This document shows, in pieces, positions 8,689-32,118 of a stretch of 64,000 nucleotides of DNA. How positions within the stretch are numbered: position 1 is the stretch's first letter; every line of letters begins with the position of its first letter. Made by a program: the position numbers and the translations under genes. The notes beneath the pieces were generated by a model. It made no database searches. It had not been told where the DNA came from and saw only the letters and a program-made list of their open reading frames with translations. This stretch comes from an uncultured virus (IMG/VR IMGVR_UViG_3300013902_000010) (lineage: Duplodnaviria > Heunggongvirae > Uroviricota > Caudoviricetes): positions 1 through 64,000 of IMG/VR virus record IMGVR_UViG_3300013902_000010; one strand, 5' to 3'.

Positions 8689-8705
8689 TGGGGAAAGATT
8701 TAGGC

Positions 8706-11700
8706 CTACAGCCTAAATGCGGCGACAGGACGAACAAGATAACTATCAGACTTGCTGCTGAGGTTGTGGACCTGCCCACTGACTGGATTGATACTCCAAG
8801 AACTATAAGCGGAATACTCCGAGGCGGACCAGTACCAGCTATTGCTTGGTTTCTGGAACTTACCATCAATAGTATAAGCCTTGGCAAAGATGTTGTTAGC
8901 CTGTCCTACCGTATATCCCTGCTTATGATACCAAGAGAACCTTGACATCTCGCCGATGGAAGGCAAGAACCAACGCCCTTCGCCAAACCGCTCATCCAAG
9001 GTCTCGTCATCCCTAACTTTAGGCACGTAGGCATTGCAATAGCTTGCAGCAGGGTAATAATACTGTTGGTACTTCTGCGCATTGCTGTGGATTGCCATAA
9101 CCGCTGATATGCAGCTTGCGAGGTTCTGCGCCAAGGTCTGTTCGGAAGTTCGTTTGGGAACAGGCAAATTCACCTTGCTGTCCTGCAATATCTTGTCTCG
9201 GTGGGCAATGATGTACAAGGTGTATAGCTGTCCTCTCGCTATCTTATCTCCGACAGACAAGCCAACGGCATCAAGATACTCGCCAAAAATCTTGTTGTCC
9301 TTTCCCACAACTTGATTGTACATGACATCCGTAATCTCATCAAACCCGATGTCACTGATAGAGTTGAGGGCAGTGCCATAGTCCTTGAATCCGTCATTGT
9401 CGGTGTTGCTCTCATCACGCATCACGGAATCGGACACGTTGTAGCCAGTCGTAAAGTTAGGAAGCCTGTTCAAGTCATAGACGCTATAGGAGGGGTCGTC
9501 GCCAAGCGTGATTCCACTCATGCCGTTGTTTGCGTCAGAAGAGTTGTACAATCCCCACACACGACTGCTGTAGTCTGACAAGGCTATGCACATCGCCCAC
9601 TTTCGATTCTTCGGCTCTATATAAAAGACGATGCCGATAGGAGAGGAGGCAGACAGACTTAGGTCATTGCCATACGTTCCATCGGAGAAGACATAATCGC
9701 CCAGCTGTACCTGATAGGCATAGAAATAAATCTCCGTTGAAGCCTCCAAGGCCTTGCCGCTGGATAGTTGCAGTGTGACTGTCACGGTCGCCTTGTCATC
9801 ATTCTCACGGCTACCAACCTCAGAAACACTAATCACACCTGTCTTCTGGTCGATGGTGGCAAATGCGTTGTCGCTCATCTTCCATGACACATACACGATG
9901 TCGTTGCCGTTGGATGGGGAAGTGGATAGCTTCAAGGTATAGTTCCCATCAGATGCAAAGTAACGGTTTCCTTTCAAGGACGCACTCGTTATCCCCACCT
10001 TGGTGTAGGTCACATAGAGGCTGTTATCCTCATCGTCGATGTTCCCCCACATACCCACCATGCGCATCTTCAAGGTAGCATCCACGCTCACGCTCTCAGA
10101 GAGGGTAATCCTGCCTGTCAGCTTGGCTTGCTTGTCGAGCAGCCAGGAAAGCGTGTCAGCCGCCACGTCCGTCCAATCCACTCCAAGAATGGTGAGCTTG
10201 GAGAGGTTCTTGCTGTCCTTGATTTTCCCGATGATGTCGAGCGCACTGATGTTAGGACAGGTCTCTTGGTTGATATAGACGGTTTGCAAATTGGAATATC
10301 CCTCCAAGGAAATCTCCGTCAAGCCACGCTGACCGTTGAGTGTAAGGTTAGTCATCGTGGAAGGGAGCTTCACTGACTTCAAGAACTCCTGTGTAGGCAA
10401 GGAGACTCCCGTAAGCGAAGTTCCACGAGCGTCAAGAGACTCCAGCCTTACGTTGTTCGACACATCAATCGTTCCTGTCAAGGAGAAAATGTTATGCACG
10501 TCCATCGTGCGAAGAGCCTTCATCGCCCCTACCGTCATGGAGGTCGCCTTCAAGTGTATGTCACTCTTGTTGTCAGTACCTGCTATAAGTTTCCTCACAC
10601 GGCTACCATTGAAAGCAAAGGTCTCGTTGGCTGGCTTGTCGTACCATGTGCCGATGTCGCTCATGTAGTTCACGCCACATACGATGTTCTGCGTGTTGCT
10701 GTCCGTGACACCCGACACTGAAACCTGCTCCCCAGCCTTCACACGCTTACCATCAAGAATGGTGCTTTGTCCGATGGTCACGACAGGGTAGAGCCACATC
10801 GCCATCGTTAGGTCGAACCTCACTTCCATCTGCTCGGTGGAGCGGTAGTTGATGTTTCCTCCCGATGGACTCGCAGGGTCAAACTCACCGTACTTGGCGT
10901 AGCTACTCATATAGACAGTCCTGTCTCTCATCCATTGTCTCTCGCCTTCCTCCTGGCTACCGAGCGACTGCGTGATAGGGTCGGTGTCGTTGTTGTAGTT
11001 GCCATTCACCATCTGGTAGTGGGCATACTCATATCCTATTCTCGCAAACTCGTTGTAAGCCACGGCAGGAAAATACTTGTTGGTTGAAAGGAAGTACTTC
11101 TCCCAACAGCCCTCCACCGTGCCACCGCCCAGCTTCGCCATGGCAGAGAGGATTTCCTTCATGGTGGAGCGCAAGTCAGCCACAAAGCACTCCTCCATCA
11201 AGTTGTAGAGCACGTTGTCCTCGCCGTTCCAGTAGTTCTTACCAAGCGTCTCGTCGAAGTCATGTTCCTCCACCCAATACGGCTTGGTCAGCTTTCCCTG
11301 GTTGTCGAAAGGCAAGATGGAATCCAAGTCGTCTTGAAACGCACGGATGAGGGATGTCGAGTTGAACACCCAGAAGTAGGTGTTTTTCGCTCTGTTGTCG
11401 CAAGCCGCCAGCAACTTCATCATGCACATGAAGAAGAGAATGTCCTTCTTGTGGAAGTACTTGCCCACCTTGTCGGCAAACTCCGCACGGCGAGCCTTTA
11501 TGAAGTCCTCGTTCACCTTGTCCCACTCCAAGTAAGTCTCATGGTTGGTGAAGTCCGAGCCAAGGCGACTCGCTATCTGGTCCTTGACGTTCAAGGTGGC
11601 ATAGCTGCCATCCTCGTTCTTGGTGATACCACCAGCTACCCATGTCTTGTTGATTTCGTCGTAGCGGTACATATCGTAGCGTGCCGAGCCGTTTTCCACC

Positions 11701-14633
11701 TTCGTTACCCAATAGCAATAGCTAATGTCAAGGTCTTTCGATGCCTTTAACTGCGTAAGCGTGCCGTTGAAAGGTTTCAAACGGTTGCTGAGTGAATACA
11801 CGAAGTTGAACGCCTCGATGAACCGTGATATGGTGTCTTGGTTTCCCATGTCGTAGTCCCATGAAGTAGTCCCAGCATACACATAGCCTTCCTCCTCGGA
11901 ATCGTAGTTTACATCGCCAGGAATCCAAGGCACTTGATGCTTCGTAAGTCGTGGGTTGTTGTCAGAGCCCTCTATCATCAGCATGTCAGGCGACTTCTCC
12001 TTGTCGTAGCCGAAGGTAGGCTTGTCAGCCTTGCCCGAGCCAAAAGTGCCCAAGCCGATGAATACAGGATAACTGTCATTCTCCGTCTGCTGAAACACAA
12101 GGAATGGGTCTTCATAGACAGCCACACGGCAATTCTCCATACCCTCTTGGCTTGTAATCTCGTTCTTGCCCACAACCTCTCGGTAAAGGTCATTGTAGAG
12201 CTTGGTCGCACCCATCTTGTGAGACTGTGGAGACGAAGCCCAGTTGCGCTTATCGACGAGCTTCTTAGCCATAGGCAATCCGTCCGCGTTCTGATAGCAT
12301 TGACCGTGGTTCACGCCGTTCTCGTCTTCCCAATAATTGGTTTCTGGGTCTCCCTTGAAGTCACTCTGAATGTTCCAAGTCCAATACTTCTTGGAGGTTG
12401 AGCCTTGTCCCTTGCGTGTCATATTATACAATGTGCCCGAATGCGCAGGGTCTCCAACCTTGTGGATAACGATGTCGCCGACGGTCGATGTTGGTGACTT
12501 CAACGACGGAACGCTGCCCTTATACAGCAACGTATTGTACTTCTCATAAGCCTTGGCATACGAAATCAAGCCACTCTCGCCCAAGATGTCGTTTTCGTTC
12601 TTGAATGCCTTCTTCTCCTCGATTGTAGCGAAAGAGGAAAGGCGGTTTTGGCGAATATCATTGGCAGAGAGGGATTTCTTGTAAATGCGCAAAGCGTAGA
12701 TGTCGATGTCCGCACCTTGTGGAGCAATGACGATTCCGCCAGTCTTCTTGATTCCATTCACGGCTTGCCAGAAGTTGTCGCTGTCCGTATAGACGAACTC
12801 ACGACTGATGATGCCGTTGATGAACACACGCACATAGTTCACGCCTTGGCTGTAGAGGTTAGGCACGATGTTGATTACAACGTGCGTTCTCGTCTCCTTT
12901 GAATATATCCAGTTCTGCGAGCCTTCCACACGTTTCTCCATGGTCATGAAGCAGCTCTCCTGCGCTTTCAGCCAAAAGCCCACCAAGTAATCGTCGGTGG
13001 TCGATTGCGTACCCATCTGCAACAACGTTCCGTTCTCGTCGGTCACGTTTCTTGTGGCAAAGTCCACCTCAATGGAAAGACCCTGCGATGGAGTATCGTC
13101 CGAATAGGCGTCATAGCTGATGTTGATTTTCTCTCCATCAAGCACACGCAAGCAGCGAGCCTTGGTGTTCTCGTCCACGAGCCAACCGTCACTGATGAAA
13201 GACAGTCCCTCGAAGGTAGCCTTCACCTGTTGTCCATTCATGGCGTTCACGATGGTGTTAGGCGCACTCTCGCTGTTGTTTCGGGTCTTAGGGTTCAGAA
13301 AGAAGTCAGCACCCGATGTAGGAGCAAAGTTCTCGCTATTGTCCACCACGACACGCAATGGGTCTCGCAACACCACCTTGTTCGATGTGAACGACATGAA
13401 AGCTGGGAAGTTGGTGTTGTCCTCGGTCTCCACCTCCAAGTCAAAGATGAGCGAGCCTATCACGCCGTTCTGCACATTCTGAATGGTCTCGGAATAGATG
13501 ATATTCTCCGATTCCAAGTTGGTAAGTACAAACGAAATGTCCGTGCTATCAGTGTTCGGGTTGTATATGGCATAGTCAAAAGCCGATACGCTGCTCCAGT
13601 TTTGGAACGTACCCACGTTGTTGACAACCAAGAGTGGGGTGGTATTGCCCGAGAGCGTACACATAATGGTCTGCGACACAGATTCCGTTCTCACGCTGTC
13701 ACCCGACGTAATCCATGCCTCGATAGTGTAGAGACCATGGGCGTTAGGATGGTCGATGTACGCTATGTAAGGTGTCTCCGTATAGGTATCCGTACCGATG
13801 TTGTAATCATAGGTACGAGAATACGTGCCGTCGCCAGAAGCAACCTTCAAGTGCAGCACCTTGCTGATGGTTCCCGTGATATTCAGCGGAATGGAGATTG
13901 TAGCCGAATTAGCCTTGTACTCAAATGGATTCTGCCACTTCGTCTGATAGGTAATCTGAATGTTGGTGAGCGTCACGGTGATGTTCACGTAAGGCGTCTT
14001 CTTGTTCGATGTCTTGCCGATAGCTATCATGCGCACGCTCTGAGTGCCGTCCACGCAATAAGGGGACAGGTCAACCTCGGTGTATGTCGAACCGTCTGAT
14101 GGCTGCGAGCCTATTGATATAGTCCCTGCCACCTTCCACTCGGATGAGTTTTGCATTCGGGTCTCAATCTGCAAGTCCGCCTCCTCGTTCGTGTCGCTCT
14201 TGCTGCCGTCCGATGGGTCGTAGAGCTGTGAGGTGAAGCGAATCTTCGCCACCAAGTCACTCTTCTTGGTCGCCGTGATGGTCCTTTCACCAGCGTTGGT
14301 GAGCTTCACGATGTAGGATGACTCCGCAGAGCCTCCACCGCTGCCCATAGGTATCTCGGCACTTGACAGTAGTAAAAAACCATGGTTATCCTTGTCTTTC
14401 AACCATGTCGTATAAGCTTCCTCGTCTGCAAACAAACCAACCGTTACAAGTCCTGTTGCGGTATCGGTCGATAAAGTATTGATATAGGAGGCTTTTGCGT
14501 TCCTCATCTCTTTGATGAGAAGTGCATCATTTTCCAATGATTTTTGGATAAACTGACGCACACGACTACCCTTATAGTTATTCCATGCAGTCGTGAAGTC
14601 CATGATTTCCTCATCTATGATATTCTTTGCCAT
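8706..14633 (-). CDS. Large tail fibre / receptor-binding protein and DGR target (CotH-like region, LRR-like repeats, Ig-like domain, C-terminal C-type-lectin-fold variable domain)
   Basis: 1975 aa. The C-terminus WFLPSIGEM...YWSASEYS...VRPVAAF is typical of DGR-targeted CLec folds and contains the VR. Also LRR-like LRTMDVHN/LESLDARGT and DNRAKN/DDLDS motifs. Confidence 0.9.
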   Translation of the reverse strand: MAKNIIDEEIMDFTTAWNNYKGSRVRQFIQKSLENDALLIKEMRNAKASYINTLSTDTATGLVTVGLFADEEAYTTWLKDKDNHGFLLLSSAEIPMGSGGGSAESSYIVKLTNAGERTITATKKSDLVAKIRFTSQLYDPSDGSKSDTNEEADLQIETRMQNSSEWKVAGTISIGSQPSDGSTYTEVDLSPYCVDGTQSVRMIAIGKTSNKKTPYVNITVTLTNIQITYQTKWQNPFEYKANSATISIPLNITGTISKVLHLKVASGDGTYSRTYDYNIGTDTYTETPYIAYIDHPNAHGLYTIEAWITSGDSVRTESVSQTIMCTLSGNTTPLLVVNNVGTFQNWSSVSAFDYAIYNPNTDSTDISFVLTNLESENIIYSETIQNVQNGVIGSLIFDLEVETEDNTNFPAFMSFTSNKVVLRDPLRVVVDNSENFAPTSGADFFLNPKTRNNSESAPNTIVNAMNGQQVKATFEGLSFISDGWLVDENTKARCLRVLDGEKINISYDAYSDDTPSQGLSIEVDFATRNVTDENGTLLQMGTQSTTDDYLVGFWLKAQESCFMTMEKRVEGSQNWIYSKETRTHVVINIVPNLYSQGVNYVRVFINGIISREFVYTDSDNFWQAVNGIKKTGGIVIAPQGADIDIYALRIYKKSLSANDIRQNRLSSFATIEEKKAFKNENDILGESGLISYAKAYEKYNTLLYKGSVPSLKSPTSTVGDIVIHKVGDPAHSGTLYNMTRKGQGSTSKKYWTWNIQSDFKGDPETNYWEDENGVNHGQCYQNADGLPMAKKLVDKRNWASSPQSHKMGATKLYNDLYREVVGKNEITSQEGMENCRVAVYEDPFLVFQQTENDSYPVFIGLGTFGSGKADKPTFGYDKEKSPDMLMIEGSDNNPRLTKHQVPWIPGDVNYDSEEEGYVYAGTTSWDYDMGNQDTISRFIEAFNFVYSLSNRLKPFNGTLTQLKASKDLDISYCYWVTKVENGSARYDMYRYDEINKTWVAGGITKNEDGSYATLNVKDQIASRLGSDFTNHETYLEWDKVNEDFIKARRAEFADKVGKYFHKKDILFFMCMMKLLAACDNRAKNTYFWVFNSTSLIRAFQDDLDSILPFDNQGKLTKPYWVEEHDFDETLGKNYWNGEDNVLYNLMEECFVADLRSTMKEILSAMAKLGGGTVEGCWEKYFLSTNKYFPAVAYNEFARIGYEYAHYQMVNGNYNNDTDPITQSLGSQEEGERQWMRDRTVYMSSYAKYGEFDPASPSGGNINYRSTEQMEVRFDLTMAMWLYPVVTIGQSTILDGKRVKAGEQVSVSGVTDSNTQNIVCGVNYMSDIGTWYDKPANETFAFNGSRVRKLIAGTDNKSDIHLKATSMTVGAMKALRTMDVHNIFSLTGTIDVSNNVRLESLDARGTSLTGVSLPTQEFLKSVKLPSTMTNLTLNGQRGLTEISLEGYSNLQTVYINQETCPNISALDIIGKIKDSKNLSKLTILGVDWTDVAADTLSWLLDKQAKLTGRITLSESVSVDATLKMRMVGMWGNIDDEDNSLYVTYTKVGITSASLKGNRYFASDGNYTLKLSTSPSNGNDIVYVSWKMSDNAFATIDQKTGVISVSEVGSRENDDKATVTVTLQLSSGKALEASTEIYFYAYQVQLGDYVFSDGTYGNDLSLSASSPIGIVFYIEPKNRKWAMCIALSDYSSRVWGLYNSSDANNGMSGITLGDDPSYSVYDLNRLPNFTTGYNVSDSVMRDESNTDNDGFKDYGTALNSISDIGFDEITDVMYNQVVGKDNKIFGEYLDAVGLSVGDKIARGQLYTLYIIAHRDKILQDSKVNLPVPKRTSEQTLAQNLASCISAVMAIHSNAQKYQQYYYPAASYCNAYVPKVRDDETLDERFGEGRWFLPSIGEMSRFSWYHKQGYTVGQANNIFAKAYTIDGKFQKPSNSWYWSASEYSAYSSWSINPVSGQVHNLSSKSDSYLVRPVAAFRL
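8719..8827 (-). repeat. DGR variable repeat (VR), 109 bp
   Basis: At the 3' end of the 1975-aa gene. Differs from TR at 11 adenine positions, giving 10 amino-acid changes. Confidence 0.97.
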
Positions 14634-19238: not shown

Positions 19239-20294
19239 CTATAATATTGGCGAACCATAAATATCCAGTTTCGCCGTGAACGATACTGAATACATATTGG
19301 TATTAGTCCTATCCATCATCGTGATTTCTTCTTCCGATGTCAGGGTGCAGGGAATCCAGTTGCAGTTTACGTCTATCCATACATGCTCACTCATCAAGAA
19401 CTCGTGCAGGTACCAACGCAACCAAGACTTATCCAATGGGTCGGTAACAAATAGCCAGGACTCCCGGTTGTTTCTCTTGTTGATGGCAGAGCGGGAGAAA
19501 CTATTGAAGGTTTCTATCTTTGCCACCGTATATTCCTCGCTTTGGATGGATATTTTCTCGCTGTAGGAGCGTGGCACATTGATGCTCTCCAATACTCCAA
19601 AGGAATTGATGAAGCGAAAATTCATGCGATGGGTTGCCTCGCTTTGAGGAATGGCATATACTGAATGTTCGCCGATAGTTTGCAAGCCTTCCTTTGTGAT
19701 AGTCTCTATCCTGGATGCAGGCGCAACAAGGCTGCTACTTGTTGCCAGGGATTGAGCCTTGGCGTAGGCTGGAGTATAAGCATATTCATCGCCTATCACT
19801 GCCATTTCGGGCGAAGACTTCGGCTTACGAGACAGAGACGTTACATCCTTGCTTACGCCGGATGTCAATCGCTCTATATCCGAGAACGCGCCTATGATGC
19901 AGCGCAGGTTGGTTGCGCCACCTGTGCTTGCATCTGGCTTCTGCGGATAGTATTGTTCGCCTACGTTGGTATGTACTTCGCCATTACTATCCATATACTC
20001 ATCGTATGCCCTTATGTACCATTTTACCATCGGATAGGTAGCCGCTTGTGGAGTATATTCATAATCCTCCAAAGGTACGCGCAAAGCGGATGATACATCT
20101 ATCTCTACATTGTTACCTTCCTTGGTGATAGGCACATTTAGCTGGATCGTCTCATAGCTTCCATCTTTATCGTATGTTACTTCCACGATTACCCGATGAA
20201 AAGACGGATTCTTATATTGCTCTGGCTGTATGGTGAACGTGATAGGGTTGCCGGCAAGGATGGAACCCGACGTTAGATTGATTTTCTTTGCCAT
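19239..20294 (-). CDS. Hypothetical tail/baseplate-region protein
   Basis: 351-aa ORF with a C-terminal FRFINSFGVLE...EFLMSEHVW motif seen in Bacteroidota phage tail genes. Confidence 0.65.
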   Translation of the reverse strand: MAKKINLTSGSILAGNPITFTIQPEQYKNPSFHRVIVEVTYDKDGSYETIQLNVPITKEGNNVEIDVSSALRVPLEDYEYTPQAATYPMVKWYIRAYDEYMDSNGEVHTNVGEQYYPQKPDASTGGATNLRCIIGAFSDIERLTSGVSKDVTSLSRKPKSSPEMAVIGDEYAYTPAYAKAQSLATSSSLVAPASRIETITKEGLQTIGEHSVYAIPQSEATHRMNFRFINSFGVLESINVPRSYSEKISIQSEEYTVAKIETFNSFSRSAINKRNNRESWLFVTDPLDKSWLRWYLHEFLMSEHVWIDVNCNWIPCTLTSEEEITMMDRTNTNMYSVSFTAKLDIYGSPIL

Positions 20295-20325: not shown

Positions 20326-20372
20326 CAAATCTCTTTGCTCGCTTTATAAATAAGGTGAGCAAAGGAGATTTG
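20326..20372. terminator. Long hairpin downstream of the ACP gene
   Basis: CAAATCTCTTTGCTC / GAGCAAAGGAGATTTG, near-perfect with one bulge. Confidence 0.6.
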
Positions 20373-20410
20373 TCTTTTATATATTTCTATCTAGGCAACA
20401 AACTCTTGTG

Positions 20411-20668
20411 CTACTTTCCGTTCTCGTCAACCTTTCGCTCCACAAGACCGATGAAGTCGGAAACCAACTTGCAAGACGATGCCTCTTCGGGAGTAATCTT
20501 GATATTAAACATCGTTTCCGTCTGAAGGATCATATCAAGAAAATCAATGGATTCCAACCCGATGTCCTCTCGTAGGTTGGAATTATCATCTACTTCCATA
20601 TCATTCAGTGGAGATTTCAAGCCATCAATAATGGTATGAAGCCGCTTCTTAATTTCTTCTTTTTCCAT
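20411..20668 (-). CDS. acpP: Acyl carrier protein
   Basis: 85 aa, acidic. DIGLESIDFLDMI carries the phosphopantetheine Ser (variant of the DSLD motif), followed by FNIKI. Confidence 0.9.
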   Translation of the reverse strand: MEKEEIKKRLHTIIDGLKSPLNDMEVDDNSNLREDIGLESIDFLDMILQTETMFNIKITPEEASSCKLVSDFIGLVERKVDENGK

Positions 20669-20673
20669 ATTGC

Positions 20674-21897
20674 TTATAATTTATTGTTATCGAATTTGGA
20701 GATAATGAAAGATGAATTGGTACCGCCGAAGCCAAAGGCATTGCAGAGAATGTTGTGCGGTTGATAATTCATTGTCTTCATCACGAGGTTTAGCTTAGGG
20801 AAAGCATTTTTTTCGGTGCCAACGCACCCAGGAAGGGATGCTTTATTCAATATGAGGGCGGCTTGCACGGCTTGCGATACGCCAGCCATCCAGCACTCGT
20901 GTCCGGTCATACCTTTTGTGGCAACCACTTTTGGACACATACCGAAAGTATCGCCAATGGCAGTCGCTTCTGCTTCATCACCCATGGTAGTGCCAGTAGC
21001 ATGGGCGAGAATCACATCTATCAAACCTTCGTCGATACCAGCATCATCCATCGCCTTAATCATGGAAACGGATTCTTGGTAGGCGAGGGGAGTACTGATA
21101 GCTGTGCCATTCGATGAGAAGCCATAGCCCGATAATATCGCCCATGGTTGGAGTTTCTTTGCTCGTAGATGAAAGTTGTGTTCCGGTTCCAATATCACAC
21201 AAGCTGCGCCACCCGAAGGAGCAAGACCTGTGCGTCCTTTCCCGAAAGGCTGCACCTTGGTATCGGTAAAGACACCCAGCGCGTCAAAAGACTGCATGGA
21301 AGCCACGCCATCCTCTTGTGCTCCTACTACTATCACCATTTCCGTTTGCTTGGTATCAAGAAGCATCTTACCTAAGCCCAAGGCATGGCCGCCGCCAGCG
21401 CAAGCCGCACTCACGGTAAGCGACAAGCCATGTATGCCAAGCAAGGATGCAAGGTTCATACTGACCGTAGAATTAAGAGAGCGAAAAACTGCGCCTGCGC
21501 CCAAATAACGAGTATCATTCTTTTGCTGCATAGTAGTGCCCGTGCGCATCATCTCGCCAGCCGTAGAGTCGTTGCTTACGATGAGCGATACATGGTGCTC
21601 GGATAAGAAATCATCCGATATGCAAGCTTGGTGCAAGGCTTGCTTTACTGCGCTAAGTGCATAAAACGTAGGTCGGGAGAAACATTGATATTGCGCTCTT
21701 GTGAGACTCGTTATCAAGTCTTCAGGCACTGATGGTACCGCACCGCACAAATCCGATTGATAGCCCTTTGCCTTTCGCTCGCTATCATGATGTAAGCCGC
21801 ACTTGCCATCGTGCAAGGCTTTGGCGAATGACGGAATATCACTGCCCAGGCAAGAGTGGATGCCCAAGCCAGTGATGTAAATATTTTCTTTGTTCAT
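20674..21897 (-). CDS. Beta-ketoacyl-ACP synthase (FabB/FabF family)
   Basis: IYITGLG N-terminus, catalytic Cys in VSAACAGG, His in AHATGT, His in KGMTGHECWMAG, and C-terminal NAFGFGGTN. Confidence 0.95.
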   Translation of the reverse strand: MNKENIYITGLGIHSCLGSDIPSFAKALHDGKCGLHHDSERKAKGYQSDLCGAVPSVPEDLITSLTRAQYQCFSRPTFYALSAVKQALHQACISDDFLSEHHVSLIVSNDSTAGEMMRTGTTMQQKNDTRYLGAGAVFRSLNSTVSMNLASLLGIHGLSLTVSAACAGGGHALGLGKMLLDTKQTEMVIVVGAQEDGVASMQSFDALGVFTDTKVQPFGKGRTGLAPSGGAACVILEPEHNFHLRAKKLQPWAILSGYGFSSNGTAISTPLAYQESVSMIKAMDDAGIDEGLIDVILAHATGTTMGDEAEATAIGDTFGMCPKVVATKGMTGHECWMAGVSQAVQAALILNKASLPGCVGTEKNAFPKLNLVMKTMNYQPHNILCNAFGFGGTNSSFIISKFDNNKL

Positions 21898-21960
21898 AGT
21901 TTTTTGTTTTTATATCATTTAGACGTTCTGTAAATCTACCTTTATATTAAGACATAGATA

Positions 21961-24762
21961 TTACAAGGCATAGACGGTAAGCTCTACCTCACCAAGACCC
22001 GTCTCTGCGCTGATGGTCGTATTCACCTTGTCGATGATGCACTTGATACCTCCGATGTTCCACCACTCCTTCCAATGGTTAGGAATATCGGCTACCTGCG
22101 CCACGGTAGTGGAGCAACGTATCTTGTATTTCTTGCGATTGAGCAAGAAATAGGCGTATGGCAAGATGAATGTGTCAAACAAGCCACGAGACTTGATTTT
22201 GGTTACTACGTTGCCGTTATCATCTACCTCGTCGGGGTCGCAAAGAACCACGTCTTTGTATTTCGGGTCTTTCAGCCAAGACGGCTCCTTATAGGCTCGT
22301 ATCTTTAGAGAGAATCGTTCGCCATTACCCAAGCCTTCCTGCACACCATTATAGTCGAAGAGGTTGCCCATCATGTCGATGGAATCACAAGCAAGGGCAT
22401 ACTTGCCTACTGCTGTGCGCCACTTAGAAGTACCGAAACCATCATAATTGTAATCATAGTTCTGCACGGTAGCATCGCTGCCACCGCCTCGCATCATAGC
22501 AAGCGCAAAGCCCCAACGGGAATCGTCTTGTAATGGTGAGTTACCGTCGTCTGTGCCCGACGGATCATAACTTTCTACCAACTTTAAAGATTGCTGCATA
22601 TAGAAATCGCAGAATGCAGTGGATATAGTTTGGTTGATGATTTGCTCAACAAACTCATGCTTCATATCCTCATCCACATAAGCGCAAAGAATAGGCTGTC
22701 CACTCTCGATGGTAACACCATACTTTTTGCCAGAAGTGGTATCTACCGCCTCATGCGAACCATAGGCAGATTCTATCTCTTTGAAATAATTCACGTCATT
22801 AAAAGGTACAGGAGTAAAGTCAATACTAATATCCTGAATGAAATCTTCATTCTCTTCACTGCAATCACCGTATTCCACACCTTTATACTGACCTACCTCG
22901 AAAAGAACTGGTTTCAAATCTGATGTTGTTGTAGCATCGCTATTTACCTTAACACGGTAGGCATTGCCTGTCTTTCGGTCGATATAACAATGCTTGTCGC
23001 CACTGCTTAAATTATGGAAGAAATCAACATAGTCCATGTTATAGACCGTAGAATTATCTCCACTATCAGGCTCAGGATAGTCGATATAATTGTAGTCGGT
23101 TTCATAATTCATGTTCTTATTCTTGCGACTATCCTTAACATTCTGCTTTTGGTCTTTCGAGTCGCTCTCCTCGGAATATCTCATCCTTACGCCTGTAATC
23201 TTTTCGGTCATAGGTACGATGGAGTGAATATTGCCATGGAAATTTCTTGCTTCTTGCCCACTTTTGCGTAGAACATCACGAACGAGATAAGCGGTTACTT
23301 TCTTCTGCTCGTAGTCGTAGGAAAACTTGATTCCAAAGGCACTCTCAAGCGAACTAATCACAGTGCTCACAGTCTCATCGGGGAAATTGTCGCTATTAGC
23401 CACCATATAAAGCACATTTGCCTGAACAGAAAATTTCTCTATCTGTGCTTCGATGGAAATACCTGTAACCTTTCCTCCATCTTCGGTAGCCTCGCCTACT
23501 TGCACATGCTCTGACGTACCATCTGGCTTCCTTAAAGTCAGTTCCTGGGTATCTTTGTCTTCTGCCTTAACGATGTTAATCTGACCTCCACAGCCACGAG
23601 AATTTAACCAGCTATTGATATGCTCTTGTGATTGGAAATATCCAGTCTTGATTTCTCCTGCCTTTTTCTTTTTGGCTATTACTTCTTCATCCTCGTCGGT
23701 GTAATAGGTACCATGATGAGGGTGCTGCATGGTATCATAAGAACAAACGGTAGTAAAGAAACAAAGATGCTTAAAGTCCTCGATTTCCAACAAAGCTGAT
23801 TTATCAAACGACACACCTAAGTAATCAAAAAGACAGTCCAGAAAATAAAGTACGTAAAAACATATACCAGATTGAGGACGGTCCGCATCCAATACCCAAT
23901 AAGGATAAAGATCTTCATTAGTCCAAGAACAATCTTTGATAGCTATCACATCGCTGGATGTCTGTCCATCATCATCAAGACCATGATGTTTATAACAGAC
24001 GCGGGCATTGCAATAAGTTGCTGCACGACCTGCCGCATCCGTTTCTCCGTATGAAGCAGAAACGTTGATGTAATTGCCGTTATTTATTTTTTTAGGCACA
24101 TTTACCGATATATCTTTTCCGTAAGATTTAGATGTCGCCTGGTAAGCGTCCGCTTTATAATGATCCGTTGAAGTCGTAGTATATTCTGCGCAAGTTGCTG
24201 GATAAGAAAACCCAAGGGCTTGTGGCTCTAATACCTTACTTACACTAACATGGGCAGCCTGTATCTTTCTTGTCTCATTCTTATCGCTCTTATGCTTTCC
24301 ACCCTCTATGAACACATTCACCTTAACCACAGGGTCACTCTCAATATCCACCCTTACATTGCCTATCTTTTCGCCAATAATAATAGTGTCCTTCACAGGA
24401 ATATCACGGCAATTCAGAGAACCGATAAGGTCGCTGAACGACTGGGTGCTGGCATCAATATTCATCGAGAGAGAATCCTTGATTTCCTCATCGTCCTGCA
24501 TCACGAGGGTACCACTGCGAAATGGCAATCCGTCGGCATAAATCTTGGTTGGCTTATGCTCCATGTTGACCGCACGGATAGATGCACGTGGGTCCTCGAT
24601 ATTCTTCAGTAACCACCGGTTGCCATTGAGTGGTAAGGTAAATGGATAGGAAAACATCTCGGTATCATTGAACACAGGATTCTGATCCTCGATGTCGATG
24701 GAGAAATCAGAAGACTGCGCCGCAGGTTTATCGTCGATAAGTATGGTAAGATGTGATTTCAT
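21961..24762 (-). CDS. Large tail/baseplate-region protein
   Basis: 933 aa. The N-terminal SIDIEDQNPVF...FSYPFTLP motif is common in Bacteroidota phage tail genes. Confidence 0.65.
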   Translation of the reverse strand: MKSHLTILIDDKPAAQSSDFSIDIEDQNPVFNDTEMFSYPFTLPLNGNRWLLKNIEDPRASIRAVNMEHKPTKIYADGLPFRSGTLVMQDDEEIKDSLSMNIDASTQSFSDLIGSLNCRDIPVKDTIIIGEKIGNVRVDIESDPVVKVNVFIEGGKHKSDKNETRKIQAAHVSVSKVLEPQALGFSYPATCAEYTTTSTDHYKADAYQATSKSYGKDISVNVPKKINNGNYINVSASYGETDAAGRAATYCNARVCYKHHGLDDDGQTSSDVIAIKDCSWTNEDLYPYWVLDADRPQSGICFYVLYFLDCLFDYLGVSFDKSALLEIEDFKHLCFFTTVCSYDTMQHPHHGTYYTDEDEEVIAKKKKAGEIKTGYFQSQEHINSWLNSRGCGGQINIVKAEDKDTQELTLRKPDGTSEHVQVGEATEDGGKVTGISIEAQIEKFSVQANVLYMVANSDNFPDETVSTVISSLESAFGIKFSYDYEQKKVTAYLVRDVLRKSGQEARNFHGNIHSIVPMTEKITGVRMRYSEESDSKDQKQNVKDSRKNKNMNYETDYNYIDYPEPDSGDNSTVYNMDYVDFFHNLSSGDKHCYIDRKTGNAYRVKVNSDATTTSDLKPVLFEVGQYKGVEYGDCSEENEDFIQDISIDFTPVPFNDVNYFKEIESAYGSHEAVDTTSGKKYGVTIESGQPILCAYVDEDMKHEFVEQIINQTISTAFCDFYMQQSLKLVESYDPSGTDDGNSPLQDDSRWGFALAMMRGGGSDATVQNYDYNYDGFGTSKWRTAVGKYALACDSIDMMGNLFDYNGVQEGLGNGERFSLKIRAYKEPSWLKDPKYKDVVLCDPDEVDDNGNVVTKIKSRGLFDTFILPYAYFLLNRKKYKIRCSTTVAQVADIPNHWKEWWNIGGIKCIIDKVNTTISAETGLGEVELTVYAL

Positions 24763-24783
24763 TTGAGTCTAAAACTTAAAGAG

Positions 24784-25428
24784 TTATTTCTTGATATTCA
24801 ACTTCGCTTCGTCGTACAATGTGATAAGGCGAGATGTGAAGCTATTGATGGTCGCCTTGCCGTAAGCATAGATGGCATTATGCCCTCGGTCGCGCAAGGT
24901 ACCATTCGTGATACGTACCACGGCGTGCTCGCTGCATTCTGCATCGCTGCCAGTAGTGAGTTGGGAGTAACCTTTGGCGATGGCATACCCATCCTTGATG
25001 GTGGCTCGGCTGTTGTCGAGTAATTCTATTTTGCAATCAGGATTCATCGCCAAGGCAGATGCTTGTAGGTGCAATACCACATGAGCCTGGCCCAGCACAT
25101 AGGCTGTATGAGCGAACGAAAGATGAATAGGTTCGTCGCTATCACCCACCAACACGTAGCCTGTTCGAGAATCCTCATTGTAGAAGATGCCAGCCGCATT
25201 GATTTCTGCCTTGAAGTCGGGATAGAAATCCTTGAAGGCTTGCACTACCTGTTGTGGTACCTCGGTTATCATGCCATGCCAATACTTGTGCCAGGTATCG
25301 CACATATCCTTGATGCTCGAAACCTTGCCAAAGTCTCGCTGCGAGTCTTGGCAGTTGCCGCTCTGGGCAAGGATGCTAATACAAAGCTGCTTGAAGCGAA
25401 GAGCCTTTTCTTCTTTCGTCTCGGTCAT
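24784..25428 (-). CDS. Hypothetical protein with beta-helix-like C-terminal repeats
   Basis: 214-aa ORF in the late operon. Confidence 0.65.
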   Translation of the reverse strand: MTETKEEKALRFKQLCISILAQSGNCQDSQRDFGKVSSIKDMCDTWHKYWHGMITEVPQQVVQAFKDFYPDFKAEINAAGIFYNEDSRTGYVLVGDSDEPIHLSFAHTAYVLGQAHVVLHLQASALAMNPDCKIELLDNSRATIKDGYAIAKGYSQLTTGSDAECSEHAVVRITNGTLRDRGHNAIYAYGKATINSFTSRLITLYDEAKLNIKK

Positions 25429-25445
25429 ATTCTTGTAAAAATAGC

Positions 25446-26606
25446 TTATACTTTTTCTTTCTTAACTGGCTGCGCAGGCGCATCTGAAGATGTACCTACC
25501 TCGGCTTCCTCAATCGTCTTGGTAAGGATAGCTTCATATCCCGCCAACTCATCCTCACTTACGATGTCGGAATATTTCTGTCTAAGCTGGTCGATGCGCT
25601 CCTTGATACCCTTCACTCTCGTTTGAGAAGATGGCTTATCCTTGCGCATGATGTACTTGATAAGAGCATCGGCTTCTGCCTTGTGCTTGGCTTCGGCATC
25701 GCGCTTTGCCTTAACCTCTGGTCGGTCGTTGGCTATCTTTTCGGCGATGGCATCCGCAAAACGAGGGTCTCTGCTCTGCGCCTTCTCGAAGAAAGGCTTG
25801 AATTGGGTACGAAGTTCCTGCGGCTCTACGGTAAAGGTTTTCTTTACGTAGTTAATGTATTCTGGGTCGCCAGTCTTCTCGCTCAAGCGAAGGTAGCATT
25901 CTCCCATCTCTCTATCCACATCGGTATAGATGGAAGGCAAGATGTTGCTCTCTATCTCGGTGGCACGAGTCGCGAGTTCTGCGATTTCATCCTCTGTATA
26001 GATAGCCTCCTTACCCTGAGAGATAGCTTTCTCGTTTGCCTCTGCCATGGTCTTAGCCTGCTCTGCCTTGCTTGCCATTTCGTTACGAAGGTCACGCACG
26101 GTGTTGATGCGCTCTTGTAGGGCTGGGGTAAGGAACGGACGGATTTGCATCAAGTTAGGCATGGTGGCAGCGATACTGTCTCCGTTAGGGTTAGCCACGA
26201 TACCATTATAGGTGAGCTGTTGGACGGATGTGTCCGGCTTCAGCTCTGGGAAGATGGATTGTTTTGCCTCTTCCAAGGCTTTCTGTTTCTGCTGCTCGAT
26301 ATAGGCAGCCTGCTCCTCCTTGGTAGGTCTGCCCACACGTCGCTTATCGCTACCATTACTTGCAGATGAGCCTGTGCCGCCAGTGAGGTCGGTGGTTTGC
26401 AAGTAAGTTACCATCTGACGAACACGGCGATGATAATCTCTGAATCGGCGAGCATCCTTTACGAAGGAGTTTGCCTTGGTGGTACCATTCAGGAGATTAA
26501 GACCTTGCTCGAATGCTTCTCGCTGTTCTGAAGTAAGCATTCTCGCTCCTATTGCAGGGGCAAGAATCTGAACGATTTGTTCGGCTGATAAAATGTTATT
26601 TTCCAT
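25446..26606 (-). CDS. Hypothetical helical protein
   Basis: 386-aa ORF containing an RRVGRPTK AT-hook-like motif. Confidence 0.7.
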   Translation of the reverse strand: MENNILSAEQIVQILAPAIGARMLTSEQREAFEQGLNLLNGTTKANSFVKDARRFRDYHRRVRQMVTYLQTTDLTGGTGSSASNGSDKRRVGRPTKEEQAAYIEQQKQKALEEAKQSIFPELKPDTSVQQLTYNGIVANPNGDSIAATMPNLMQIRPFLTPALQERINTVRDLRNEMASKAEQAKTMAEANEKAISQGKEAIYTEDEIAELATRATEIESNILPSIYTDVDREMGECYLRLSEKTGDPEYINYVKKTFTVEPQELRTQFKPFFEKAQSRDPRFADAIAEKIANDRPEVKAKRDAEAKHKAEADALIKYIMRKDKPSSQTRVKGIKERIDQLRQKYSDIVSEDELAGYEAILTKTIEEAEVGTSSDAPAQPVKKEKV

Positions 26607-26901
26607 AAATCCTTTTATTTTTTTTTGCTTATTTGAAATTTAAAGATAATATTTACCCGATTTCGGCTTGATTTCCGATTAATGGCAGATAAAGCGGTTT
26701 TGAATACGCCCAAAACGACATTAAATCGAAAACAAGCCTTTTTCGCTACGTGCATTTTTACGAAACCTATGAGTATTCATACAAAATGCAATGCGGACAT
26801 TTATAATCCGTAGCTCTTAGGGCGGGTACCTTACCCCCCCAATTTTGCCACTCCTTTCGGTGGCTTATGGGGTGTACCGATGCCGAGAATTTAATCATAC
26901 A

Positions 26902-28152
26902 TCAGCACAGGATAGGGGTTACGAATATTCGGGAGCCAGCTTGGTTGTTCTGATAGCCCTCGTTGCCATTATCGCCCGATGATGAACCAGGCGATGAAGC
27001 CGACGATGAACTACAGGAGGAGTTACTCGTCGATGCGGAAGAGCCGCTTGCTCCAGAGTTGTTTCCAGTGTTGGTACCATCGCTTCCGCCGTTGGCTGCA
27101 TCGAGTGCAGCTTGCTTCTCGACTTCCTCTTTCTTTAGTAAGCGATGAATGCTTTCCCTTACGGTAATGGCATCATTGTGGGCAGTAGAACGAGCCAGCT
27201 TATCGAAATTGATAACCGACGTTCTTTCTTTGAGATATGCGGCTATGAGTTGACGGGCTTTCTTCAGAAGCTTATCGTCTTCGCTTGCTTGCAGAAGGCG
27301 AGGGATGAAGTCTTCGCCAAATGCCTCTTCCAGATATTCGCTCTGGATGAATCGCATATCGGGAATCAAGCGAACAAACTTGTCTCGATTGTCGTAAATA
27401 TCGAGGTACGGCTGCAAGCTCTCGCAGGTAGGGAAGAGCAAGTCTGAATGATAATAATAGTACTTGCTTTCTTCCCACAGTAAGACTATCTCGCCGATGG
27501 CTTGCAGTTTATCCGCCTCGGTTTCATCAGAAGAACCAGTGTTATCGGAAGAACCTGTATCATCAGATGAGCCAGTGTTATCCGAAGAGCCAGCGTTATC
27601 GGAAGAACCTGCGCTATCAGATGTTTCTGTATCACCAGATGCGCTATCACTTAAAGATGTGTTATCGCCCGATAAGGTATCAATCTCCATTGGGGTATTG
27701 ATTTTCTTTGCCCATCCCTCCAAGAGAGATAGCAAGTTATTGAGAGAAATCATCGCAGTCTCGCGATAACTTTCCTTGCCCTGGGCTATCTGCTTATCGG
27801 TTGCCACAGAATAGTCGTTACTCGAAGCCACATTGATGCCAGTGCCATTCATCGAAAGAAGTTGCTTTTCGATGTTTTTCGCCATCGCATCGTTTACGAT
27901 CATGCGCTGGGCATACAGTAAGACCTCGTTCCATGGGTTTTTGTCATAATCGCCGTTGATAACAGCGTCGCAAAAATCAGATGGCTCTATGCCTCTGTAA
28001 TATTCGCACAAGCGATTGTAGAGCGATTCACCCAAGCGAGGCTTCAAGAAATCTTTTTCACTATTATCGAGCATACCCTGCAAGTTAGCCACCTCGTCCA
28101 CAGCGTTGCTGGGGAGGTGAAGCCGAAGTTCTTGATTTGTGAAGAGTATCAT
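26902..28152 (-). CDS. DUF6712-like head/neck-associated protein with Ser/Gly/Asp insertions
   Basis: Follows the portal. N-terminal ...EKDFLKPRLGESLY... and SSDNTG-type hexapeptide repeats at about 27531-27620. Confidence 0.65.
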   Translation of the reverse strand: MILFTNQELRLHLPSNAVDEVANLQGMLDNSEKDFLKPRLGESLYNRLCEYYRGIEPSDFCDAVINGDYDKNPWNEVLLYAQRMIVNDAMAKNIEKQLLSMNGTGINVASSNDYSVATDKQIAQGKESYRETAMISLNNLLSLLEGWAKKINTPMEIDTLSGDNTSLSDSASGDTETSDSAGSSDNAGSSDNTGSSDDTGSSDNTGSSDETEADKLQAIGEIVLLWEESKYYYYHSDLLFPTCESLQPYLDIYDNRDKFVRLIPDMRFIQSEYLEEAFGEDFIPRLLQASEDDKLLKKARQLIAAYLKERTSVINFDKLARSTAHNDAITVRESIHRLLKKEEVEKQAALDAANGGSDGTNTGNNSGASGSSASTSNSSCSSSSASSPGSSSGDNGNEGYQNNQAGSRIFVTPILC

Positions 28153-28212
28153 ATCTTTTTATATTTTTGTTCTTTGAAACATTATATAGTATTGCCATAC
28201 CATCCATATAGG

Positions 28213-28465
28213 AATGGGCATTGTTGCCTTCATACAATGGGCATTGTTGCCTTCATACAATGGGCATTGTTATATATCAGGAATGGGCATTGTTGTAAAA
28301 AAGTATAGGTATCACTTTCTAAAACCATAGGTATAGTTTCCGAAAAAGATAGGTATAGTTTTCGTCGAGTTTTCTGCCTCATTTTTCAAACGGCTAACCG
28401 ATTTTATCAAAAGGGTTAACCAATTTGATGAAATCGGTTAACCGATTTGAAGAAATCGGCTAAAA
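28213..28465. repeat. Three consecutive 22-23-bp period arrays
   Basis: AATGGGCATTGTT at 28213, 28236, 28259 and 28282. ATAGGTAT at 28305, 28327 and 28349. GGYTAA at 28392, 28414, 28436 and 28458. Confidence 0.9.
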
Positions 28466-28472
28466 CATACCC

Positions 28473-30296
28473 TTACTCCTGTCCCTGCTTTGCTACTCCA
28501 GTTTTCGAGTTATCGAGGGTAGTCAGCACCTCTCTGTCTATCTGCCAAACGAGATGCTCATCCCACTCGTTGAATCGGGAGATAACCTCCAGCGGTCTCA
28601 GCATCGCTTGCTGCATAGGAGCAAACTGGATTTGCTTAACCAAGAATCGCTCTCTAAGGTCGGTACCACCCGATGAAGCCGTGTCGCCAGGCGTGTTGCC
28701 GATAAGCTTGGCATCAAGACCCATGGCAAAGAAGATGATGCTCGAAATCTCCTGCAACTCGGTCTTGTCGGCATTCGCTTGGTCGTTGGCCTTGCTTTCG
28801 ATTTCCACGATTTCCCAAGCCTTGTGCTCCTTACCGTCGCTACCCGTGAAGGCGGAAGAGACGAGGGCTTGACCTGCATTGTCGGGATTGGCGAGCCATG
28901 TATTGATGGATGTGAAGATTTCGTTCTGAATCTCGCCAATGGTCTTCTTCTTGCTCTCGCCTTGCTGCTGATAGAGCTTGTTGATGTAGTCTTGGTGAAT
29001 GTAGATAACTCGACCGATGATGTTGCTGTTGCGCTTTCTCGTGAGTCTATCATCCACGATGGTGAAAGCATACTCAAAGATACTGCCGGCAAAGATGGAG
29101 TGCCAAGAAGCATCGGCATAGTATGGGCCACCATAATCTCTTGGCGACATGATGAATCGGGTAGGGCGTTTCTTTACGCTCACTCGCTTCTGTCTCGCCT
29201 CCCTAATGTATCGCTGCAAGTCTTTTACAGCCGATGTGGATTGCAAGAAAGGCAAGGCAGATATTTTTCGGTCTTCCTCTTTGAGGGTGTTGGCAGACTG
29301 GGTGGCATCGAGCCATTGATTAGAAATGTACGCATAGTTGATGCGATACTTGCTATCTTGTCGCTCCAGTCGGGTAGTAAAGATACTGCGATGTTTTAGC
29401 CCGATTGCCTTTGGCTTCCAGTTGGCTGTATCTACTGGTTTGCCATTATCGCCCAACTGACGTTGGTTCAACTGGATCTCTGCAAAACACTGCGACATCA
29501 GAGCCATATCGCCAGCCATATTGAGGTAAGTCTGCATCAAGTCGTTATCGTCGATGAATTGACGAACCCAGGCATTCGTCTCTTCCCATTTCTTCAAATC
29601 CTCTTTGAGAGATTTCATCTCATCGGAATCCTCTTCATCCTGGGCAGGATAGGAAAGGTTAAGAGATATAGGCTTTTCTTCTGAAGTATTATCAGATTCA
29701 CCCTGTTGCTGGTTCTGCTGCGCTTGCTCGGCTTGCTGACGTTCCAACTTAGCCTTTTCCTCCTGCGCCTTCAACTCGGCGATACGACCGCGAAGCAACA
29801 CGCCTGCCGTCTCGTAGGGGATATACTTCTCCGTGATGTTGCCACCCACATATTGTGTATAGTGATACTTAGGCATAGGACCGCGACCCACCAAGATTTT
29901 CTTGATGAAATCGTAGCCAGCCGCAGTGAATGGCGACATACGAGTAAGCAACCATACGATGTTAGGTTTGCGGTTGCCGAATCCCCATTCCATGTAGCCA
30001 AGGTCGGGTGTGCCAACATCCTTTGGCTTTGACAGGCTTTCGCCTCCGCTCGATGCGAAGATGGTAGATACCTGCTGCCGAGCTGCGCTGCCCTCGCCCG
30101 ATGCACTGCTGGCACTCATGCCGGCCTCGCTAAGGAGCATGGAGCGAACGTAGTCATTCCAAGAGAATACCTTGCAGCCGCCGTTCTTGGGCGACACGTA
30201 GGCATCAGGGCGCACGGCTACATAGCCTTCTCGCTTGAGTTCCTCACTACGATGTTGGAACTGCCGCAAGTTTGTGACTCTGTTTTTTCTTGTCAT
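28473..30296 (-). CDS. Portal protein (putative)
   Basis: 607 aa. WGFGNRKPN, WLANPDNAGQAL, IFFAMGLDAKLIG and SSGGTDLRE resemble Bacteroidota phage portals. Confidence 0.75.
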   Translation of the reverse strand: MTRKNRVTNLRQFQHRSEELKREGYVAVRPDAYVSPKNGGCKVFSWNDYVRSMLLSEAGMSASSASGEGSAARQQVSTIFASSGGESLSKPKDVGTPDLGYMEWGFGNRKPNIVWLLTRMSPFTAAGYDFIKKILVGRGPMPKYHYTQYVGGNITEKYIPYETAGVLLRGRIAELKAQEEKAKLERQQAEQAQQNQQQGESDNTSEEKPISLNLSYPAQDEEDSDEMKSLKEDLKKWEETNAWVRQFIDDNDLMQTYLNMAGDMALMSQCFAEIQLNQRQLGDNGKPVDTANWKPKAIGLKHRSIFTTRLERQDSKYRINYAYISNQWLDATQSANTLKEEDRKISALPFLQSTSAVKDLQRYIREARQKRVSVKKRPTRFIMSPRDYGGPYYADASWHSIFAGSIFEYAFTIVDDRLTRKRNSNIIGRVIYIHQDYINKLYQQQGESKKKTIGEIQNEIFTSINTWLANPDNAGQALVSSAFTGSDGKEHKAWEIVEIESKANDQANADKTELQEISSIIFFAMGLDAKLIGNTPGDTASSGGTDLRERFLVKQIQFAPMQQAMLRPLEVISRFNEWDEHLVWQIDREVLTTLDNSKTGVAKQGQE

Positions 30297-32091: not shown

Positions 32092-32118
32092 AATCTTATA
32101 TTTTTTGTATTGATGATG

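Follow-up and report, generated by a model that had tools for sequence, protein, structure and literature searches.

A gene pair encoding a ketosynthase (KS) and an acyl carrier protein (ACP) lies among the virion genes of the uncultured virus IMGVR_UViG_3300013902_000010. We propose that this pair is a working, phage-adapted auxiliary module: a FabB/ApeR-like condensing enzyme with its cognate carrier, which would prime or push a flexirubin- or aryl-polyene-like outer-membrane lipid pathway of the host. We set the probability of this reading at roughly one half. Judged from the sequences, the pair is a descendant of the flexirubin-cluster lineage of Bacteroidota, and its KS is not a FabF. The source is a 97,567-base (97.6 kb) virus record rated about 98% complete; the window, the whole stretch of DNA that was analysed, is its first 64 kb (64,000 nucleotides). 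The pair itself consists of the following.

20674-21897, minus strand: KS, 407 aa, FabB/ApeR-like, of the flexirubin-cluster ('FlxC-position') lineage (Pfam, alignment, tree)
20669-20673, minus strand: spacer of 5 bp from the KS stop to the ACP start
20411-20668, minus strand: ACP, 85 aa, with Ser40 in the motif GLESID (PF00550, phrog_5934)

Identity and ancestry of the ketosynthase and its carrier

Is the KS a complete enzyme? The initial annotation of this DNA had described a full-length synthase with an intact Cys-His-His triad, and the domain and alignment data uphold that description. Both KS domains score above the gathering cut-off of 20.8 bits, PF00109 at 77.5 bits (E 1.6e-21) and PF02801 at 62.8 bits (E 4e-17). 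Cys166, His299, Lys328 and His333 do not vary in any of the 19 relatives aligned, the FGFGGTN (GFGG gating) loop is kept, and in the best PDB alignments the catalytic residues line up with the active site of FabB. Domains and catalytic residues together place the protein among the elongating-type beta-ketoacyl-ACP synthases of the thiolase fold. It is not a typical member of either housekeeping family: with the NCBIfam model for FabB (NF005935) it scores 186.1 bits against a cut-off of 630, and with that for FabF (TIGR03150) 166 bits against 493.75. No PHROG family matches it. Nor was a second, Cys-less KS-like partner (chain length factor) found, the whole record containing one KS-like match at E<=0.001. 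The enzyme also stands apart from the ApeO-type clade in the tree described below and is not of the KS–chain length factor heterodimer type (type II polyketide synthases, ApeO:ApeC).

The second protein is an ACP both by its domain score (PF00550, 27.4 bits against a cut-off of 20.8) and by the Ser of a D/E-S-[LI]-D motif at the start of helix II; it also matches phrog_5934, 'acyl carrier protein'. The GLESID serine and the 5-bp distance from the KS, both read earlier from the DNA, hold on closer inspection. This Ser is retained in 40 of the 40 sequences printed, out of 42 distinct ACPs of relatives (60 loci). At the same time the protein falls below every NCBIfam ACP equivalog cut-off, its best score being 42 bits against 66. 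Its top non-phage match is the ACP of a flexirubin cluster, at 55.5 bits compared with 34-37 bits for housekeeping AcpP. As the shortness of these proteins limits such a comparison of scores, it is suggestive only of an origin of the phage ACP from that of the flexirubin cluster.

Where among bacteria are the relatives of the KS to be found? When one genome was searched for each of 185,579 species, the best 80 of 590 KS relatives were all from Bacteroidota, at 40-43% identity. A homologue was found in 112 of the 401 Bacteroidales genomes sampled (36-43% identity, none closer). A Flavobacterium locus contains, in order, an FAD halogenase, FlxA tyrosine ammonia-lyase, FlxB reductase, KS, ACP, an LpxL-type acyltransferase and DarB; the NCBIfam scores are 901 bits for FlxA (cut-off 700), 415 for FlxB (340) and 675 for DarB (550). 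Loci of Muribaculaceae and Prevotella have the same core together with a thioesterase, a second KS, a second ACP and a B12-radical SAM enzyme. The series tyrosine ammonia-lyase (TAL), short-chain dehydrogenase/reductase (SDR), KS, ACP and LPLAT-type acyltransferase recurs in three of six further Bacteroidales loci, one of the three being the Muribaculaceae place again. In its accessible text the paper on flexirubin biosynthesis names FlxA, FlxB and FlxC in that order, with FlxC among the cluster ketosynthases (PMC3992019). We call the bacterial sister of the phage KS 'FlxC' by its gene order beside NCBIfam-confirmed FlxA and FlxB, not by comparison with a published protein sequence.

To examine the relationship we built a careful tree of 58 rows by maximum likelihood, omitting four with very long branches (the viral L072 and three bacterial paralogs). 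The 20 KSs of the phage lineage form one clade (100/100). This clade is sister to 18 KSs of Bacteroidota clusters (87/71), and the two together are supported at 100/100. FabB of E. coli and ApeR group with this combined clade (99/96); E. coli FabF, six FabF-like paralogs of Bacteroidota and the elongating KSs of ApeO type are all separate from it. Of the 23 rows printed, the phage and cluster KSs alone have the motifs [GS]NDS, [LM]NST, HAT[GS]T and GHECWM. By its position next to the cluster clade and by these signature motifs the phage KS goes with the Bacteroidota KSs of the 'FlxC-position' type. A link with flexirubins or aryl polyenes had been offered in the initial annotation as an example; the phylogeny bears it out, the phage clade being sister to a KS that sits beside FlxA, FlxB, an ACP and an LPLAT-type acyltransferase.

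How close is the likeness to the known systems? The flexirubin clusters of Chitinophaga pinensis and Flavobacterium johnsoniae (flxA tyrosine ammonia-lyase, flxB reductase, flxC ketosynthase), as far as the accessible text of PMC3992019 describes them, have the same KS-then-ACP order as the phage. To this are added the sister relationship, the common motifs including GHECWM, and the cluster ACP as the best non-phage match. On the other hand, the phage KS is 36-43% identical to its cluster counterparts, the phage group has lost a loop of seven residues, and the phage is without genes for FlxA, FlxB, LPLAT, DarB, thioesterase and second KS. ApeR of E. coli CFT073 and Xenorhabdus is the initiation KS of aryl-polyene clusters, according to the accessible part of PMC8253772. 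It falls on the same side of the tree as FabB and the phage and flexirubin clade, and in aryl-polyene and flexirubin clusters alike the KS gene comes after a ketoreductase gene. However, ApeR has a long branch (1.21) and is without the GHECWM and HAT signatures. E. coli FabB (KAS I) and FabF (KAS II) belong to the same fold family and have the same Cys-His-His chemistry, but they form separate clades, and both use the housekeeping AcpP whereas the phage KS brings its own ACP.

These comparisons bear on a more general role, in which KS and ACP would feed type II fatty-acid synthesis of the host (FabD, FabG, FabZ, FabI), sustaining or reshaping the supply of fatty acid, phospholipid or lipid A during late host shutdown and having no part in pigment formation. 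The closest solved structures are indeed KAS I/FabB enzymes (147.6 and about 136 bits, against about 110 for FabF). Type II fatty-acid synthesis is present in all hosts, the cluster-type KS in 112 of the 401 Bacteroidales, and the phage carries no pigment-specific gene. There is also a precedent, since the accessible text of PMC8224337 reports fabG-acpP-fabF as auxiliary genes in three predicted roseobacter prophages. But neither KS nor ACP is of the housekeeping lineage: branches with support of 100/95 and higher part the KS from the FabF-like paralogs, and AcpP is the poorer match of the phage ACP. Moreover, additional condensing capacity for fatty-acid synthesis needs no private ACP. We regard such a general boost to lipid synthesis as unlikely, though a serious candidate.

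Recurrence, selection and movement of the pair

How widely is the pair kept, and in what company? The genes on either side of it, and the order in which they stand, provide the frame for this question.

21961-24762, minus strand: upstream neighbour p933, 933 aa, predicted baseplate hub or central spike-like tail-tip protein (predicted fold)
19239-20294, minus strand: downstream neighbour p351, 351 aa, all-beta phage protein with no enzyme fold (predicted fold)

Among the matches listed, a protein search gave at least 120 KS relatives, 62-100% identical and on contigs of up to 139 kb. The 90% cluster that contains the exact KS protein occurs on 51 contigs, and a profile scan of viral contigs found KS relatives in 191 of 297 candidate stretches. 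Comparisons of the locus use 80 loci kept of these 191 viral relatives. In 60 of the 80 the gene order p416-p386-p214-p933-KS-ACP-p351 is identical, and two more, truncated loci have its downstream half. When loci were instead anchored on p933, the KS was present in 61 of 66. For 60 loci we determined the ratio of nonsynonymous to synonymous substitution (dN/dS) by the method of Nei and Gojobori from pairs with 0.05<dS<1.5. The ratio is 0.116 for KS and 0.154 for ACP; for the flanking genes it is 0.138 (p351), 0.088 (p386), 0.076 (p933) and 0.067 (p214). Conservation of position and dN/dS, the checks suggested at the outset, thus agree, and we conclude from the codon comparisons that KS and ACP are kept under purifying selection.

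Some records classed as viral hold the chromosomal fabB of E. coli. One of them, L080, shows no difference from it in 403 aligned columns; the record of phage 500465-2 (NC_049343.1 28400-29620) runs on into mnmC and fabB. These are cases of prophage-boundary overreach, not KS genes of phages.

How did the pair come to lie where it does? In the five p933-anchored loci that lack the KS, p933 is 39-49% identical, and in four of the five p351 comes directly after p933, the gap being 15 bp in three of these four and 14 bp in the fourth. Since the hub gene and p351 are adjacent in relatives without the KS, the pair was inserted between two neighbouring virion genes in the group studied. Elsewhere it is either missing (in distant relatives) or sited after the tape-measure gene, which marks it as a mobile accessory module. 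The pair is kept in all close relatives sampled, yet is not needed by the lineage at large. With phage genes on both sides, a cellular homologue, retention in relatives and absence from some of them, it has the properties of an auxiliary or passenger ('moron'-like) module.

Might it then be passive cargo, captured recently from a host, joined to the phage by chimeric assembly, or decaying as a functionless passenger? The module is absent from a distant relative that is 98% complete and from four partial ones, and its site differs between groups, as would be expected of such cargo. Against this stand the occurrence of the KS cluster on so many contigs, the synteny of both sets of loci, the invariant catalytic residues, dN/dS values of 0.12-0.15 and the phage genes on both flanks. 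The initial annotation had named absence from close relatives, combined with near identity to a host chromosomal locus, as the mark of recent capture; instead the close relatives carry the pair, and the nearest bacterial copy, whether among the 185,579 species genomes or the 401 Bacteroidales, is 43% identical. These results effectively exclude both passive capture and artefact.

A whole lineage of large uncultured phages thus keeps a condensing enzyme and its own carrier, of pigment-lipid descent, and relatives occur on about 190 viral contigs. An identity of about 40% to any bacterial copy, together with movement within the genome, signifies long retention and points to an interest of these phages in outer-membrane pigment lipids. 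Relatives with and without the KS, their tail modules otherwise matching, offer a clean natural experiment.

The tail-region setting and a possible role

What kind of proteins flank the pair? For neither the 933-aa nor the 351-aa protein did Pfam or PHROG give a family match, and atlas look-ups of both led to unnamed viral clusters only. The AlphaFold2 model of p933 is of moderate quality, with a mean predicted local distance difference test score (pLDDT) of 61.4. Foldseek gave no match for it at E<=0.001. Structural re-alignment gave 17 chains at VIA Z>=8, and the rows listed are all baseplate-hub, central-spike or tail-tip proteins, among them the phiCD508 needle (10.1), the T5 tail tip (9.0), VgrG1 (9.0) and Mu gp44 (8.3). 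As VIA Z values of 8-10 are middling, p933 is a predicted baseplate hub. The model of p351 (pLDDT 70.5) is all-beta and has 84 look-alikes among uncharacterised Caudovirales proteins; its matches in the PDB are weak and Ig-like only, with TM about 0.2. Farther out are a protein with the phage tail-tip domain PF24243, a weak baseplate-wedge match and a 1975-aa protein that is the target of a retroelement. The pair had been described as embedded in a tail operon. This stands to the extent that its neighbours are tail-like, by predicted fold and not by sequence family; it does not stand as a fixed place, since in a sister group the pair follows the tape-measure gene, and since one distant relative, 98% complete, is without it.

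Is the pair read together with its neighbours? Two non-coding features of the locus are relevant.

21898-21960, minus strand: gap of 63 bp 5' of the KS, free of TAnnTTTG (the nearest sequence is TAGATTTA)
20326-20372, minus strand: stable hairpin in the 116-bp spacer between ACP and the next gene (folding against shuffles)

Neither strand of the 63-bp gap carries a TAnnTTTG box, in agreement with the first reading of the DNA. The long hairpin reported after the ACP is likewise real, at -24.1 kcal/mol (z -4.79, 0 of 200 shuffles as stable), with three U only after the stem. It is specific to the studied genome and a near-identical copy, however; the relatives have gaps of 1-26 bp or other hairpins. 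Co-transcription of the pair with the flanking genes, as had been suggested, fits the data, because the pair has no -7 box of Bacteroidota type of its own, is oriented in the same way as the flanking virion genes and, in many relatives, abuts the next gene at 1-26 bp. A TAnnTTTG box is present in the region 32119-32155, which had been proposed as the promoter; further boxes lie at 31100 and 29075, and there is a terminator-like hairpin at 28443-28414. The box at 32119-32126 (minus strand) falls inside the longest endolysin open reading frame (ORF), 31537-32214 (minus strand). Since the Pfam and PHROG matches of the endolysin begin at residues 37-49, the true start may be downstream of the box.

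What partners does the phage supply? It had been stated that no reductase, dehydratase, phosphopantetheinyl transferase (PPTase) or acyltransferase is adjacent, and the absence extends well beyond the vicinity. Across the 97.6-kb record there is no match to PPTase (PF01648) or to the LpxL-type acyltransferase (PF03279). Neither an SDR nor a dehydratase nor a malonyl transferase turned up when 86 ORFs were scanned with Pfam; the scans gave a single GNAT, at a distance of 16 kb.

38103-38960, minus strand: GNAT acetyltransferase, 285 aa (Pfam)

This GNAT was not found in five of the five related phage records searched. For 17 of 22 bacterial cluster proteins there was no match in the 80 viral loci or in the whole record. 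The phage pair is not itself a pigment cluster, having near it no FlxA, FlxB, LPLAT, DarB, thioesterase or further KS. A profile of gene content against three whole relatives gave 13 genes common only to the KS-bearing genomes, none of them lipid-related; the profile is weak, because the KS-less genome is also the most distant. With no partner enzymes encoded, host enzymes are needed, and the earlier suggestion that the pair borrows them follows from that absence.

How, then, might the module work? An ancestor of the lineage would have acquired KS and ACP together from a pigment-lipid cluster of Bacteroidota. The pair would then have been held by purifying selection and moved within the genome, here settling downstream of the baseplate-hub gene and ahead of the next virion gene, where it would be read with the late genes. 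Going by the families concerned, a host PPTase would make the holo form of the phage ACP and the host malonyl-CoA:ACP transacylase would load it. The KS would carry out a decarboxylative Claisen condensation by way of Cys166, His299 and His333, and a host ketoreductase, dehydratase and acyltransferase would complete the chain and put it in place. Late in infection the KS and ACP may in this way prime, or push flux into, flexirubin- or aryl-polyene-like lipids of the host outer membrane. We favour a role in priming because the bacterial sister has FlxA, FlxB, an ACP and a lipid acyltransferase as its neighbours; because the KS groups with the initiation-type ApeR and not with the elongating ApeO; because KS and ACP both come from that pathway; and because the pathway is common in Bacteroidales (112 of the 401 sampled). 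A flexirubin-type pathway is plausibly available in the hosts.

A number of observations weigh against this proposal. The phage KS has diverged strongly: with the FabB model the bacterial KSs score 399 and 378 bits, the sister phage group 265 and the studied phage 186. In the studied phage group seven residues of a loop after the Phe204 helix are lost (region of residues 210-216, window ~21250-21290; FT-------DTKVQPFGKGR). That loop is retained by the sister phage group and by the bacterial cluster KSs, while the ApeO-type polyene KSs are similarly short. Divergence and loop deletion mean that the substrate and the partners of the KS may have changed. The phage clade lies beside, and is not nested inside, the bacterial clade sampled, so the donor, and the pathway it served at the time of transfer, are not fixed by the tree. 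At E<=1e-70 there was no match to the cluster-type KS in 289 of the 401 Bacteroidales genomes; many candidate hosts may accordingly lack the pathway. A host that has the pathway already owns such a KS and ACP, and it is not evident what a copy supplied by the phage would add. The pair also travels without tailoring or transfer enzymes.

The distribution of the pair also counts on this side. PF00109 has no match in the five KS-less records, of which one is 95,275 bases long and 98% complete and four are 65-70% complete. In a second set of viruses, whose KSs are 40-47% identical, the ACP gene precedes that of the KS, and the two stand directly after the tape-measure gene and before a primase. 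Identities of 35-44% for the tape measure, 43-49% for the primase and about 40% for ThyX assign this set to the same broad lineage of phages. Two different sites and a KS-less relative that is 98% complete signify that the module is dispensable for the basic life cycle.

Does the proximity to tail genes have a meaning of its own? A chain built on the ACP might be passed to a baseplate, tail-tip or lysis protein of the phage, or to a molecule of the host surface, and so aid adsorption and entry or block superinfection; the siting beside the hub gene would then be meaningful. The predicted hub gene is immediately 5' of the pair, and the next virion gene follows at a distance of 1-116 bp; in the sister group the pair comes after the tape-measure gene, and both sites are in tail modules. 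But no transferase accompanies the pair, the sole GNAT being far off and not conserved, and neither neighbour models as an enzyme fold. Those KS-less relatives that retain the hub and 351-aa genes side by side argue that these two proteins do not need the module. Phage passenger genes, moreover, are usually inserted between tail genes. We consider a private acylation of this sort improbable.

A related idea gives the KS the role of a private, chain-initiating enzyme that, with the ACP, makes the phage's own lipid or polyene, which would be put on the outer membrane of the host, or on a protein of the tail tip or baseplate, and would alter adsorption, entry or superinfection exclusion. The loop deletion and divergence would then reflect a new substrate. 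We think this quite improbable; if it were true, the pair would be a phage-directed lipidation system and not a simple metabolic boost.

How new is such a pair? The auxiliary lipid-synthesis genes known from phages are for the most part single ACPs, or host fab genes at the edges of prophages. In open-access full text we found no published KS–ACP pair in Bacteroidota phages and no flexirubin-type pair in any phage, and a term search of Benler et al. 2021 (PMC8008677) returned no mention of a KS–ACP pair. The statement that KS plus ACP is rare in tailed phages is nevertheless only partly true, as there are precedents. The fabG-acpP-fabF genes of the three roseobacter prophages, in the accessible account of PMC8224337, and the ACPs of phrog_5934 are alike in that a viral KS, ACP or both are read as modifiers of host metabolism. 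They differ in that the roseobacter genes keep the order of the host fab operon and lie in predicted prophages. The pair studied here has its ancestry in a pigment cluster and differs by at least 57% from every bacterial copy. Virion genes flank it, and it is conserved throughout a lineage of phages that do not look like integrating ones. Returning to the flexirubin/aryl-polyene proposal, this lineage appears to tamper with the lipid or pigment chemistry of the host outer membrane, a surface that also bears phage receptors. Protection from oxidative stress and promotion of biofilms have been reported for aryl polyenes, in the accessible text of PMC8253772.

The virus record and its other genes

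What kind of virus carries the pair? It appears to be a large uncultured phage of a siphophage-like lineage, of Bacteroidota-type bacteria. TAnnTTTG is present in 61 copies where 40.6 ± 7.0 are expected, an excess that fits a Bacteroidota host. The record also encodes a head protease, a GH108 endolysin, a terminase, genes of nucleotide metabolism and a diversity-generating retroelement. Other features of the window are as follows.

55726-62646, minus strand: tape measure, 2306 aa (PF10145 and tape-measure PHROGs)
34842-35747, minus strand: LysR-type regulator, full (HTH_1 and LysR_substrate)
6612-8827: complete diversity-generating retroelement, with reverse transcriptase at 6612-8036 (minus strand), template repeat at 7849-7957 and variable repeat at 8719-8827

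A length of about 97 kb and a giant ORF had suggested a crAss-like podovirus; this was rejected, as the 2306-aa ORF is a tape measure. A tape measure of that size implies a tail of great length. Some 23 kb separate its gene from those of the baseplate, and genes for replication and nucleotide metabolism occupy the interval; such an order of modules is unusual.

Is the phage temperate? Families of integrases and resolvases have no match anywhere in the whole record, and no prophage copy was seen in the bacterial genomes searched. The initial annotation's framing in terms of lysogens and induction is therefore not sustained, and the phage may replicate in a plasmid-like manner or be strictly lytic. 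Outside the window, at record positions 95203-96381 (minus strand; L084:15304-16482), there is a weak match (E 5.6e-5) to the WH2 domain of a Rep3-type plasmid initiator.

Neither a close phage relative nor a host emerged from the searches. Megablast with 12 kb found nothing among GenBank phages, whose best protein matches are at most 41.6% identical for KS and 27-31% for the terminase. The LysR-type regulator was matched in 40 of the 401 Bacteroidales genomes, at 34% identity at best, with no close homologue. A 20-kb query against the same 401 genomes gave conserved-motif matches, endolysin-like loci and one phage-like contig, but no convincing spacer. One Bacteroidales contig (G298:C63, L286) has DNA 65-75% identical to 22083-28946 of the window, from the hub gene to that of p416; it starts within the hub gene, so that the KS side is cut off, and its genome also carries a TAL-SDR-KS-ACP-LPLAT cluster. 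That genome is a weak host lead.

Several further genes look auxiliary: a PAPS-reductase-like protein, a radical SAM/DUF5131-like protein, ThyX, MazG and guanylate kinase, for which the coordinates listed jointly are record 64882-65934 (plus strand) and 71994-72971 (minus strand) and window 51250-53196 (minus strand). The radical SAM/DUF5131-like protein is also kept in the KS-bearing sister group. The sole tRNA found in the record is a tRNA-Thr (TGT) at record 82181-82254 (minus strand; L084:2282-2355).

Finally, the variable repeat of the retroelement lies at the 3' end of the 1975-aa gene (8706-14633, minus strand), and a small ORF (8052-8525) lies between it and the reverse transcriptase. 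Template and variable repeats, each of 109 nt, are 90% identical, and 11 of the 11 differences are at template adenines. We conclude that the retroelement diversifies the C-terminus of this giant protein, which is probably a tail fibre.

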